63,369 nucleotides of DNA, filler included, from Bonamia ostreae (GCA_040357525.1; 37 parts of 37 records of this genome joined end to end with filler, not necessarily neighbours in it), one strand, 5' to 3'; counted from the first letter of the whole stretch, positions 5,188 through 54,839 are shown. Made by a program: numbers and translations. Notes: generated by a model from the sequence alone, not told the origin.

Positions 5188-5674
5188 AATCAGGAAAAAG
5201 AAATCTTCTCCAAATCGGACCGCTTTTTCATCGCCAAAAATTCCACGCTCCACACTCAAATTTTAGTCGATTCTTTGTACAACGTCATTTTCTTCCAATA
5301 CGATCGGTCTCCTTGGTTGCCGACATTAAAAACAGTCCATCAATGTTTAATATATTGATTCTCAAAGACCCGAAAATAATGCCAGCTCTAAAAGTTGACG
5401 AGGGCGCGATTAAACATGTTTTAAGAGGATCAGACATAATGACGCCAGGATTGACAAACGAAGGAGGAGAAATCGCGGTGGATTTGGAGGAGAACAAATA
5501 TTGCGTAAAATTTGCGATTTTAAGGTTGTTAACGCGGAAGGAAAAGAGCACGCTGCGGCGGTAGGAATGACATTGATGTCAACGGAACAAATGCGCAAAG
5601 ATGGGAAAGGCAGAGCGATAAAGAGTTTGCACCATCTCGGCGACAGTTTGTGGGAATTAGATTTGTCTAATTAA
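5188..5674 (+). CDS. MCTS1: MCT-1/Tma20 translation factor (PUA domain), 5' partial; introns 5345-5367 (23 nt) and 5505-5524 (20 nt)
   Basis: Spliced ...PWLPTLKTVHQYPKIMPALKVDEGAIKHVLRGSDIMTPGLT...AEGKEHAAAVG...KGRAIKSLHHLGDSLW. Confidence 0.93.
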
Positions 5675-5890
5675 AATTGCTAAATTTTTTAATCGTTTTA
5701 AATGTAATTTCAATATCAAATGGGTCTTTTTGTAGCATTGTAAGATTAATTTAATATAATAGCAATGCTTTTGTAGTCGGTGTCAATGTCGGATTGGATT
5801 CAAAAGGCCTTCAATTTTACAATTAAACTGAAATTTGTGGATTAATTAAGTTTGAATCGATTTGATAACAACTGTAATTAGAAATGACAA

Positions 5891-6768
5891 CTAATTATAA
5901 TCCATTAAAATAAAAATATATGCTTTATCATTAAAATCTGTAATAAGCTTAAAAATGTCCAAACAATAAAACGTGTTCCAATCGATTCCATTAAAGAAAG
6001 GATGTCTCTTTAACTTTTCAAAGCCATCTTTTCCTGCGCCAAGTCGTTCCTCTTTGGAGGTTTTCATCAATTTTCTCATTAAATCTTCACATTGTTCTGA
6101 CATAGGAGGATATTTAATGTCAGAAGTAATTGCAGAATAAACAGCCCGCAAGTCCAATTTTTTGTTCACAAAAGCGTTTTTAAAATCAAACGGACGCGAC
6201 CCCGTGATACACATGTACATGGTCACCCCCAAAGACCACAAATCAGCTTCCAGTGAAATCCGTCCTTTCAAAATCTCTGGAGCTTTTTTGTAAAATATTT
6301 TGCCGAAAAATCATAATTTTGTCAAATTAGAAGAAAAGCATTTTTATAGAAATTAATTTTGAAATTTTTAAAAATCGTCAAAATTGCTAATTTGACAAAC
6401 CCATAAACATCGGACTTCCTTTTATTTGTAATTCCTTGACATCTTCTACTATTTCGGATAATCCAAAATCGGTCAATCCGATCCGAAAATTTGAGTCGAT
6501 CAATATATTTCCCGGTTTGATGTCCAAATGCGCAAATCTTTTTTTGTGGAGCGCTTCTAACCCGTTAATGATTTGAGCGAAAATGGGTTTGTAGAAAATC
6601 TCGTTCTTGAAACTCGATTTCGCAAATTTCCCAAGAGAGCCGTTCGGATAGTACTGCATCACCAAATAAGCAGAATTTTTTGTTTGGAAAGAAGCGAATA
6701 GTTTTGGAATGAATTCGTTGTCGATATTTTGAAGGATATTTTTTTCGGTTATTAATTTGTCGAACTTT
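5891..6768 (-). CDS. AGC-group Ser/Thr protein kinase, 5' partial
   Basis: HLDIKPGN, DFG, GSPMFM|APE across a GT-AG intron, DLWSLG, RLGAGKDGFEKLKRHPFFNGIDW. Confidence 0.9.
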
Positions 6769-6983
6769 AAATCAAATTTGACTAAATCCAGAAATCAAAA
6801 TTATAGCAACTTCCCNNNNNNNNNNNNNNNNNNNNNNNNNNNNNNNNNNNNNNNNNNNNTTAATTAATTAANNNNNNNNNNNNNNNNNNNNNNNNNNNNN
6901 NNNNNNNNNNNNNNNTTTCTTAGTCATAACTGTTATAGTTTAGAATAAAGACTAACCACCATTTTCCATTCTGTTGAAATCAG

Positions 6984-7178
6984 GAAGAATTACCCTTGGG
7001 TTCATATCGAACTATTTACGAGGAAATGAGAGACCACCCTGAGGTAGCAACTGCTATTCAAAATGTGGACATTGCAATTCGGTATCTTCTTAAAACTGGC
7101 AGCAAACCCGAACTATCATTGGAACAATATATGAAGGAAAAACATCTGATGGAAAAGCCGTTTGAAGATCACCATTCG
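6984..7178 (+). CDS. Isolated exon of an RNF213-like giant E3 ligase/AAA+ (animal host)
   Basis: AG/GTATG-bounded 195-nt exon. EVATAIQNVDIAIRYLLKTGSKPELSLEQYM resembles the RNF213 C-terminal region. Confidence 0.6.
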
Positions 7179-52698: not shown

Positions 52699-53131
52699 TT
52701 AAAATTTAGCCGACATCATATTAAACTTGTAGACGATATCAGTGCCTTCCACGATCAAAGTTACATTTGTGGCATTTTTCGTGAAAAAAACGGAATTGTG
52801 TTTTCCATTAATGCGAATTTTGAGGTTTTTCCCATTTTCGAATTGTCCGATGAGACATCGATCGCCTCCTGTAAATTCGCAATCGTTGCAGTCTTCAACG
52901 GTCAAGACGCGATAATCTTTTTCGCAGTCGATTTTGATTTTTTCGCAATCGTCGAAGATCATCCCGTGGATGTTCTCGTCGAGGACGGTGATAGTTGAGT
53001 TGGAGCATTTTATGAATTCTCTTGAAACAGCGACATTTGGATTTTCGTACGGTTGGACAATAAAGTTTTTGTTGTTTTTAATGTCGCGGACAATCTTCAA
53101 TTTTTATAATTCTTTGAATTTTCACTTGGAC
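52699..53131 (-). CDS. C-CAP/cofactor-C-like beta-helix protein, C-terminal part
   Basis: Periodic KCSNSTITV / IFDDCEKIKI / TVEDCNDCEF repeats typical of the CARP beta-helix. Confidence 0.6.
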
Positions 53132-53231
53132 NNNNNNNNNNNNNNNNNNNNNNNNNNNNNNNNNNNNNNNNNNNNTTAATTAATTAANNNNNNNNNNNNN
53201 NNNNNNNNNNNNNNNNNNNNNNNNNNNNNNN

Positions 53232-54048
53232 ACAAAAAATTAAATTTTCAAGTTTTAATAAATTTCCGAAAACAAACGATTATTGCGATTATTATTTTGC
53301 CGATAGTCCGCATATTGACCCGCCGCCGGATTGTACTGCGACTGCTGCTGCGGATACTGATTCGGTCCTTTCTCGAACCCGCCGTTCTGCCCCACATTCC
53401 GCGCCGGCATGTACGGCGGCGCGCCGTACTGATACGGATTCATGTTCTGCTCCATCTCGCCGCCGTACATGTTCGGATTCGCGCCGAAGCGACCAAACCC
53501 GCTCCAATAATTGTACGGAGGCCTCGAAGCGTAATTGGGGAAATGGCTCCGCTGCAAATCTAAAATTTTTCTGAAAAACTTTTCCGCTTCGGCTTTTCGC
53601 TCGCTGGTTTGGCCTCGACATTTTTGCCTTTGATGATTAATTGGTTGCTCCGAGAAAGCTGCACGATGTTGTCGTACTGCATTTTTATGGCGAAAAAACA
53701 TCGCTTTTGTCTTGGAAACCGACGAAGCCGAATCCGCGCGTGTTTCCGGTCAACTGGTTGACGGGCATTATCGGCTCGATAACTTTACCCTTTGAGATGG
53801 TCATGAAGAAGTGTCTAAACTCCTCGAGAGTTGTGTCTCGGCTGACGCCGCCAATGAACAGTTTTCTGTCTTCGATGTTTTCTGTGTTTTTAGGAATTGT
53901 GGGTAGTTAGAAAGGAACCGTCTGTTTGATTATTTTGTTGGTTTTCGACGGGTTTCGTCGGCGTTGTTTCAGTCGTCTTTTTATTTTCTTCTTCGTTTGG
54001 ATTATCGTCCGTTTTTGTTTTTTCGGTGAACTGAGGAGAAGTAGACAT
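53232..54048 (-). CDS. RRM RNA-binding protein (hnRNP A/Musashi-like) with a Y/G/N/Q-rich tail; three short introns
   Basis: RNP2 KLFIGG, RNP1 RGFGFVGF, IKGKNVEAKPA, and a low-complexity C-terminus. ATG at 54048. Confidence 0.9.
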
Positions 54049-54268
54049 TTAAAAATTTAGGTTTGTTTAAATTTGGTATATGCCTTTTATATATAATGAT
54101 TTGAGATTTTTGAGCTTTTGTTTTGTTAGTAGTAAAACGCATATTGTTTGTGTTGAATAAGAAAGCAAATATTAATGTCGTTATTATTTTATAAAAATTT
54201 TTGCAAATCGGATTATATTAAAAATTGTAACTTGATTATATCTGAGAGCTTATAAAATTAGATTGCGA

Positions 54269-54839
54269 ATGGCAATTATCAAAAATTGCCGTGTAAACTT
54301 TCTCCGTTTCTTCGAAATATTGCCACGTGCGTTGTTACGCGCCACTTGTTTCGGGTTTATTGTTCTCACATATTTCACTTCTGCGATTGTGTTGAACTTT
54401 ATTCAATTTTTAATTCTGCGATTTTTTTTGATTGGGAAGACCAAAAGAAGGGCAATTGTACGGAAGATCTGTCAGTTTTGGTGGAATTTGACGGATTTCA
54501 GCGCTTTTTATTTTCTCGGGCTAAAGTTTAAATTTAGCTATTCGAAAATCGATTATTTTCAAGTTTAAAATTTTACGGAGAACCCATCGAAAAAGCGGAG
54601 AACGCCATTGTGATTTGCAATCATTGCGTCGGAATGGATTTTATTTCTGCGCATGGAATGTTCGCAGCTTTAAAAACCAAAACTTGTAATGTTATCGGAC
54701 TTTTGAAATGGTCGCTAATGTTTTTGCCCGGGGTCGGTTCGATGAACTATGCTCAAGGCGGATTGTTCCTCAAAAGAAAATGGGATGAAGACAAATCTTA
54801 TATCAAAGCTCATCTTTCGTCTGAACTGTAATTCTAATT
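54269..54839 (+). CDS. Lysophospholipid acyltransferase (AGPAT3/4-LCLAT family), 3' partial
   Basis: N-terminal TM, ICNHCVGMDF (HX4D), LKWSLMFLPGVG, FLKRKWDEDK. Confidence 0.9.

Follow-up and report, generated by a model that had tools for sequence, protein, structure and literature searches.

The haplosporidian oyster parasite Bonamia ostreae most likely carries genuine U2-type (GT-AG) spliceosomal introns, more than half of which are 20 to 28 nts long, and which open mainly with GTTT and never with GTRAGT in the genes considered here. These genes lie in a 63,369-base stretch of its genome assembly (GCA_040357525.1; hereafter the window), in which 20 GT-AG introns are supported by homologues, Pfam profiles or solved structures in six genes, encoding SYF1, AsnRS, PDI, a proteasome alpha subunit, MCTS1 and a protein kinase (Table 1). 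A preliminary description of the window, made from the sequence alone, had proposed pervasive introns of 18 to 28 nts with T-rich donors, and each of the nine intervals that it listed explicitly opens with GT and closes with AG when read on a single strand. Its claim that removal of the introns restores conserved proteins holds by homology for 8 of 14 introns (two in MCTS1, 14192-14212 in the proteasome gene and five in PDI), while the other six are plausible only.

Homology-supported introns in six genes

Support comes from protein alignments made without any splice-site constraint. When aligned in this way to independent homologues, the genes for SYF1, PDI, AsnRS and the proteasome subunit show gaps that coincide with the introns. 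In addition, the open reading frame (ORF) at 33868-34311 on the minus strand is 100% identical, over the aligned 66%, to the NCBI protein P0001 'Pre-mRNA-splicing factor SYF1, partial [Bonamia ostreae]', and NCBI B. ostreae models correspond to two other contigs (P0079 for PDI and P0124 for AsnRS). Together, the public gene models P0001, P0079 and P0124 already have 14 of these introns spliced out, from the total of 20. The second PDI intron is particularly well placed, with a 21-nt gap at most 1 nt away in five of five alignments to distant PDIA6-type homologues, and GT-AG ties for the best placement there. The N-terminus is variable, which leaves the first PDI intron with weak support from homologues.

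The third SYF1 intron consists mostly of a 47-nt tandem repeat (3.7 copies, 91% match, 33297-33471, minus strand), and because of this repeat at least one of the long introns looks like an expanded short intron. A shorter repeat of 13 nts (2.9 copies, 37328-37365, plus strand) overlaps the donor of the fourth AsnRS intron, where several alternative GT sites occur.

In MCTS1, the Pfam matches are distributed over three frames (Pre-PUA 35-85/86, PUA 3-32 and PUA 42-74), in an order matching the two introns. The Pre-PUA match stops at the donor of the 23-nt intron, and the PUA match begins just past its acceptor with the frame changed. Residues 1-35 of exon 2, which encodes 45 residues, correspond to residues 89-123 of human MCTS1, and residues 2-45 of exon 3 to residues 134-177, the two exons being contiguous within one residue in the alignment to solved structures. 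For exon 1, PDB contained no match with an E-value of 1 or below. Similarly, splicing of the 118-nt intron of the protein kinase unites ...GSPMFM with APEILKG, and the Pkinase profile continues from 164 to 164.

A probable fourth intron of the proteasome gene (14509-14531) was kept outside the set of 20. The proteasome protein P0244 terminates at a stop codon within this interval, which may have been left unspliced in that model, as the homologue P0250 aligns beyond it.

Table 1. Introns and other features of the window (positions are counted from the first base of the whole stretch)
Feature	Position	Strand	Length (nts)	Ends	Phase	Evidence and remarks
SYF1 gene fragment (428-residue model)	32700..34308	-				Pfam HAT_Syf1 pieces; NCBI P0001
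SYF1 intron 1	33975..34014	-	40	GTTAAT...GCAG	0	P0001 threading; unconstrained P0002 and P0003 gaps; GT-AG ties best
SYF1 intron 2	33797..33831	-	35	GTTTGC...AAAG	2	P0001 threading; homologue gaps; GT-AG rank 1 of 97 dinucleotide pairs
SYF1 intron 3	33288..33495	-	208	GTTTGA...TTAG		P0001 threading; homologue alignments; placement scores
SYF1 intron 4	33042..33062	-	21	GTTTAC...TTAG		Identical site with P0001, P0002, P0003; GT-AG rank 1
SYF1 intron 5	32883..32903	-	21	GTTTCG...AAAG		P0001 threading; homologues; at most 2 score units off best placement
AsnRS intron 1	36304..36391	+	88	GTCTTT...AAAG		P0124 (annotated); homologues P0128, P0139, P0131
AsnRS intron 2	36630..36704	+	75	GTTTGG...TTAG		Exact interval in all four proteins without splice-site constraint; unique best placement
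AsnRS intron 3	36833..36965	+	133	GTTTTT...AAAG		P0124 threading; homologue alignments; placement scores
AsnRS intron 4	37344..37463	+	120	GTTTTT...TCAG		P0124 threading; homologue alignments; placement scores
PDI intron 1	28192..28214	+	23	GTAAAG...ATAG		P0079 threading; homologue support weak
PDI intron 2	28295..28315	+	21	GTTTTT...TTAG		Just upstream of WCGHC active site
PDI intron 3	28413..28436	+	24	GTAATA...ACAG		P0079 threading; homologue gap
PDI intron 4	28546..28567	+	22	GTTATT...ATAG		P0079 threading; homologue gap; placement scores
PDI intron 5	28827..28847	+	21	GTAATC...TAAG		P0079 threading; homologue support weak (rank 12)
Proteasome alpha-subunit intron	13937..13964	+	28	GTTCTT...ACAG		28-nt gap at most 5 nts away in P0247, P0250, P0251, P0259
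Proteasome alpha-subunit intron	14192..14212	+	21	GTTTTA...TTAG		P0244 (96% identity), P0247, P0250
Proteasome alpha-subunit intron	14321..14425	+	105	GTTTTT...AAAG		P0244, P0247, P0250
Proteasome alpha-subunit, probable extra intron	14509..14531	+	23	GTAAAA...AAAG		P0250 aligns beyond; open flanks, positive codon scores
MCTS1 intron	5345..5367	+	23	GTTTAA...AAAG	1	Pfam; solved structures
MCTS1 intron	5505..5524	+	20	GTAAAA...TAAG	0	Solved structures; Pfam
Protein kinase intron	6283..6400	-	118	GTTTGT...AAAG	1	Pkinase profile 43-164 and 164-263, two frames
Claimed ValRS intron	19761..19780	-	20	GTTTTC...ATAG		123 open codons upstream, 74 downstream, positive codon scores; plausible
Claimed separase-like gene intron	21667..21687	-	21	GTTTTT...ACAG		206 + 166 open codons, one frame, stop in interval; plausible
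Claimed intron	22746..22765	+	20	GTTTAA...TTAG		32 + 59 open codons, low codon scores, no family match; weak
Claimed Na/Pi cotransporter intron	26349..26368	-	20	GTTATT...AAAG		237 + 80 open codons; TIGR01013 upstream only
Claimed NUC153-domain intron	40314..40336	-	23	GTTCAT...AAAG		NUC153 profile 1-22/29 stops at donor; 148 + 45 open codons; plausible
Claimed shortest intron	45452..45469	+	18	GTTTTT...TTAG		30 + 37 open codons, modest codon scores, no family match; weak
WD40 ORF	42978-43409	+				Best solved-structure match WDR83 (9s2f_WD, E 1.7e-29, query 8-143 to chain 170-304)
Reverse-transcriptase ORF	12361-13038	+				RVT_1, E 4.7e-31; contig 12090-13712
fn3-like ORF	29270-29671	-				fn3 match; CpG-depleted contig
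Cysteine-rich ORF	11716-11988	+				EGF-like by eye; CpG-depleted contig
CpG-depleted contigs	starts 6916, 8642, 10367, 15535, 17255, 24124, 29269, 34413, 37840, 41266, 48106, 56647; perhaps 3460					CpG observed/expected ratio and 4-mer profile

Placement of the intron boundaries

The precision of the boundaries was assessed for the 14 introns of SYF1, AsnRS and PDI. Both boundaries of each intron were slid by up to 12 nts with the frame kept, and the spliced translations, from 174 to 209 placements per intron, were scored against homologues other than the Bonamia annotation. GT-AG ties for best at 8 of the 14 introns, falls no more than 5 score units short of the top placement at 13, and is the sole pair among 256 that fits the homologue alignments of these genes. 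Summed over the introns, the deficit from the best placement is 34 for GT-AG versus 267 for the next pair, TT-GA, bearing in mind that a shift of GT-AG by 1-2 bases produces several of the control pairs, TT-GA among them, which are thus not fully independent of it. The frequent pairs TT-AA and TA-AA, which are present near all 14 introns, are near-best at three and one of them, respectively. At the sequence level the homologue alignments are decisive, showing that the intervals must be taken out for the proteins to be collinear with their homologues and that the boundaries are GT-AG.

Size, splice sites and composition

The 20 supported introns measure 20, 21 (five introns), 22, 23 (two), 24, 28, 35, 40, 75, 88, 105, 118, 120, 133 and 208 nts. 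They form a tiny class of 20-28 nts (11 of 20, ten of these between 20 and 24 nts, with a mode of 21) and a longer class of 35-208 nts (9 of 20). Hence the proposed size range of 18-28 nts describes the former and fails for the latter. The introns are dense (about 4.6 per kb of coding sequence, counted over five genes) and richer in A+T than the exons (79% versus 56%). Retention would place an in-intron stop codon in the reading frame in 16 of the 20 cases, and nine lengths are divisible by three, with no depletion of multiples of three.

A GT start and an AG end are common to all 20 introns, as is usual for U2-type introns, and so is a homologue-collinear protein after removal; a GTRAGT donor was found in none. 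The donors read GTTT (12), GTAA (4), GTTA (2), GTTC (1) and GTCT (1). The preference for GTTT, GTTC or GTTA over GTRAGT noted at the outset is therefore confirmed (15 of 20 versus 0 of 20), as is the departure of the donors from the canonical U1-pairing consensus. The abundance of GTTT exceeds what intron composition predicts (binomial p 9e-6). At position +3, T is found in 15 donors (p 0.0015, given that intron interiors are 40% T), A in four and C in one, and T also exceeds intron composition at position +4 (13 of 20). Positions +5, with G in 4 of 20, and +6 are nearly unconstrained, and the last exon base is unbiased (G 6, A 5, T 5, C 4). A pyrimidine occupies +3 in all nine introns longer than 28 nts, and the four GTAA donors all belong to tiny introns. 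Among the seven introns of 75-208 nts, six are headed by GTTT and the seventh by GTCT. The presence of the same GTTT-type donors on these long introns speaks against a definition of the introns by length alone, which had been one of the mechanisms put forward.

As described previously for the window, the acceptors lack a pyrimidine tract. Position -3 is A in nine introns, T in seven, C in four and G in none, in agreement with intron composition. The YAG consensus is not followed in the 20 introns, about half of the bases at -4 and -5 being A, and the interiors contain 41% A and 40% T. Inspection by eye of the 11 tiny introns found an A 7-10 nts from the 3′ end in each and no common branch-point motif, which tells little at 79% A+T. 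None of the 20 donors begins with ATATCC or GTATCC, the two starts that the U12-type consensus RTATCCTT predicts.

Evidence from reads and public records

Contigs of two DNA runs, each from a separate study, reproduce the PDI contig with no gaps, X2 in one piece and X1 in overlapping pieces, hence the PDI introns are present in the genome. Eight exon variants were found in PDI among the DNA runs X1 and X2 and run X13, whose kind is unrecorded; read in the spliced frame, five of them alter a third codon position and are synonymous. These include all three variants in the exon following the 24-nt intron; one extra variant is intronic.

The published annotation of B. ostreae was trained on transcriptome reads, according to the available text of the genome paper (PMC11069148), in which B. 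ostreae is said to 'carry canonical introns', with a mean of 2 per mRNA, and in which no statement on intron size or splice motifs was found. The words 'intron' and 'splic' are absent from the transcriptome paper (PMC9329632). In the Bonamia and Haplosporidium literature, a description of intron size or donor motif was not found, the supplements of PMC10245619 and PMC11069148, which possibly hold intron tables, being outside the scope of the search. The existence of the introns is already on record in the gene models; the 21-nt mode, the two size classes and the T-rich donor are not described. Papers on haplosporidian actin genes may mention short introns.

Nature of the introns and their recognition

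Several observations weigh against the proposed introns or the proposed manner of their recognition. Three ab initio tests failed to separate GT-AG from control dinucleotide pairs: in a dynamic programme for the longest spliced ORF, a TG..GA control scored on par with GT..AG; the proportion of candidates bridging ORFs was 5-9% for every one of 12 pairs; and a gene finder based on codon log-odds gained 223 bits with GT-AG and 188-247 bits with the controls among 10 pairs. Distant homologues favour a gap other than GT-AG at two of the 14 introns, 28413-28436 (rank 27), where the preferred gap is of 30 nts, and 28827-28847 (rank 12), both in variable regions of PDI. No RNA junctions were found: a search for RNA runs matching 27554-37500 listed none, four runs on the PDI contig gave no joints, and X3, a run guessed to be RNA, covers 27577-27782 only, upstream of the gene. 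Furthermore, the term 'canonical' is applied to the introns in the available text of PMC11069148, the 20 introns come from six conserved genes only, so that the proportions of sizes and motifs may differ genome-wide, and 4 of 20 donors read GTAA, so that for part of the introns a canonical U1 could still be adequate.

The ab initio results bear most directly on the idea that the intervals are chance GT..AG pairs, picked by eye or by a gene finder since their removal opens a frame. Restoration of an ORF alone is no evidence for introns, and it was dropped as such because control pairs do equally well in A+T-rich DNA, pairs such as TG..GA joining ORFs as readily as GT..AG; likewise, 6 of the 14 introns listed at first have no homology support. 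However, alignments free of splice-site constraint demand gaps at exact places that only GT-AG fits, and the MCTS1 exons adjoin when aligned to the human protein, which makes chance pairing a very improbable account of the supported introns. It is, if anything, even less credible that the inserts stem from misassembly, are remnants of pseudogenes or are excised from the DNA itself like the internal eliminated sequences of ciliates. Such a reading would agree with the fact that RNA evidence was not obtained, but it conflicts with the ungapped PDI contig in two DNA runs of different studies, with the mostly synonymous exon variants and with the GT-AG ends, 79% A+T and 21-nt mode common to inserts in six genes. 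Spliceosomal introns, which would be removed at the RNA level by a spliceosome acting across the intron (intron definition), hence stand as the most likely interpretation.

How such introns would be recognized is less certain. Of the components SYF1 and WDR83, cited in the preliminary description as retained splicing machinery, the former is present, as shown by its HAT_Syf1 pieces and the match to P0001, and the latter is represented by a WDR83-like protein, the WD40 ORF at 42978-43409, whose best solved match is WDR83 (E 1.7e-29), with WDR5 scoring not far behind. In the introns themselves, only GT and AG are fixed, and the donor from +3 to +6 is T-rich (GTTT, then GTAA, then GTTA). Recognition would draw on the terminal GU and AG, on the richness in U at the start and on the difference in A+T between introns and exons, and would not depend on a canonical U1 pairing with a longer part of the donor. 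We lean towards this mode of recognition, with limited confidence. The canonical U1 5′ end is ACUUACCU, and its pairing would be limited to about two positions in most introns, with little beyond the GU, because the donors carry little information past GT and the T bias at +3 and +4.

Alternatively, U1 may have co-evolved with the donor, its A's opposite +3 and +4 pairing with GUUU as fully as canonical U1 pairs with GUAAGU, in which case the mechanism would be conventional. This possibility, which we hold to be the less probable one, draws on the excess of T at +3 (15 of 20) and +4 (13 of 20), on the p value of GTTT (9e-6) and on the GTTT heads of six of the seven introns of 75-208 nts (GTCT in the seventh), for which a length ruler would be of no help. 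In addition, the available text of PMC11069148 places losses of splicing genes on the branch of paramyxids plus mikrocytids and not on that of Bonamia. On the other hand, weak conservation from +3 to +6, GTAA in 4 of 20 donors and nearly free +5 and +6 positions are unlike tight pairing. The merely mild conservation from +3 to +6 is the reason for favouring a weak dependence on U1 pairing over a compensated U1. The donors of other eukaryotes generally have a purine at +3. It may be suggested, tentatively, that the haplosporidian 5′ splice site prefers GUUU, with a pyrimidine at +3, and is recognized either through an altered 5′ end of U1 or with no U1 pairing at all. If this were true, then together with the 16-17-nt introns of mikrocytids it would place the origin of non-canonical intron recognition early in Ascetosporea, ahead of spliceosome reduction.

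Comparison with known tiny introns

Ultrashort introns are reported in mikrocytids, chlorarachniophyte nucleomorphs, heterotrich ciliates and Paramecium, according to the available text of PMC10245619. In the mikrocytids Mikrocytos mackini and Paramikrocytos canceri, the introns are of 16 or 17 nts (217 and 7 of 224, respectively) and highly conserved in sequence, and the small nuclear RNAs found for their spliceosome are U2, U4 and U6 only; chlorarachniophyte nucleomorph introns are of 18-21 nts and those of heterotrichs such as Stentor of 15-16 nts (PMC10245619, available text). Judged against the same text, Bonamia resembles the mikrocytids, its sister parasites, in that it also belongs to Ascetosporea and has many ultrashort spliceosomal introns in a reduced, A+T-rich genome, but its tiny class is of 20-28 nts, is poorly conserved and occurs beside introns of 35-208 nts. 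It shares introns of about 20 nts and a reduced genome with the chlorarachniophyte nucleomorphs, whereas these are relic endosymbiont nuclei with a narrow size range and the genome of Bonamia, which is that of a free nucleus, has a further class of longer introns. With the tiny introns of ciliates it has in common very short length, removal that is probably by intron definition and the premature stop that usually follows retention. In the cases cited in the part of PMC10245619 consulted, size is fixed within a few nucleotides; Bonamia departs from this, since 9 of its 20 introns are of 35-208 nts, and it does not belong to the size-constrained class of the mikrocytid, nucleomorph or heterotrich type.

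It appears that one Bonamia spliceosome removes both 21-nt and 100-200-nt introns with a common T-rich donor. Ciliate donors, those of Paramecium included, are of the GTAA type and retain a purine at +3. Unlike these, the donors of Bonamia are T-rich, and its introns show no depletion of lengths divisible by three (9 of 20).

Tiny introns test the smallest substrate that the spliceosome can process. In Bonamia, it becomes possible to check directly whether U1 and U6 have evolved together with the 5′ splice site, and how short an intron can be and still be spliced. From a practical viewpoint, aligners and gene finders with a default minimum intron length, or with donors trained on GTAAGT, will mis-annotate Bonamia, P0244 with its stop inside a probable 23-nt intron being an example.

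Claimed introns outside the supported set

Each of the six introns that were claimed initially and are without independent homology support can be read in one phase that leaves both flanks open, the codon log-odds being positive to either side; this support is strong for 21667-21687 and weak for 22746-22765 and 45452-45469. The ORF upstream of 19761-19780 is a ValRS anticodon-binding domain, and the exon downstream gave no ValRS match against PDB. A Peptidase_C50 domain lies downstream of 21667-21687 on the same strand. Among 134 short ORFs of 24-54 residues on the gene-bearing strands, Pfam revealed nothing relevant. The contig of the Na/Pi cotransporter (25839-27453, minus strand; NCBIfam TIGR01013, E 2e-30) has 40% GC and a CpG observed/expected ratio of 0.98, between the two groups of contigs described below, and its organism of origin is ambiguous.

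Composition of the window

The window consists of 37 contigs of 1605-1630 bp each, ordered by size and joined by spacers (e.g., 1631-1730) made of 44 N, TTAATTAATTAA and 44 N. Because the contigs are concatenated, adjoining genes in the window are not genomic neighbours, and positions 5188-54839 are not a single locus. The available text of PMC11069148 gives the B. ostreae assembly as 9705 scaffolds with an N50 of 1417 bp and 33.3% GC, figures in keeping with the window.

Analysis of 4-mers and CpG separates the contigs into two groups. About 24 contigs, including every one with parasite gene models, are CpG-rich (observed/expected 1.2-2.6), an excess that Bonamia-like contigs (e.g., 20691-22307) show despite a GC content of 24-35%. 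The 12-13 others are CpG-depleted (observed/expected 0.6-0.85), with a distinct 4-mer profile, scarce long ORFs and metazoan-looking pieces, and are probably host (mollusc) DNA remaining in the parasite assembly. The suggestion that host-type sequence stands beside parasite sequence is thus plausible as regards the presence of such contigs.

A search of the window against Rfam matched no families, and ARAGORN detected no transfer RNAs in it. The contig that carries the reverse-transcriptase ORF is the most A+T-rich of all (21% GC; CpG observed/expected 0.89), and the owner of this retroelement is uncertain. Upstream of PDI, at 27577-27782 on the plus strand, run X3 reaches a word depth of 374-1051, and one contig of 1497 nts runs into unlike sequence; this segment is possibly a repeat, or else an element of high abundance.

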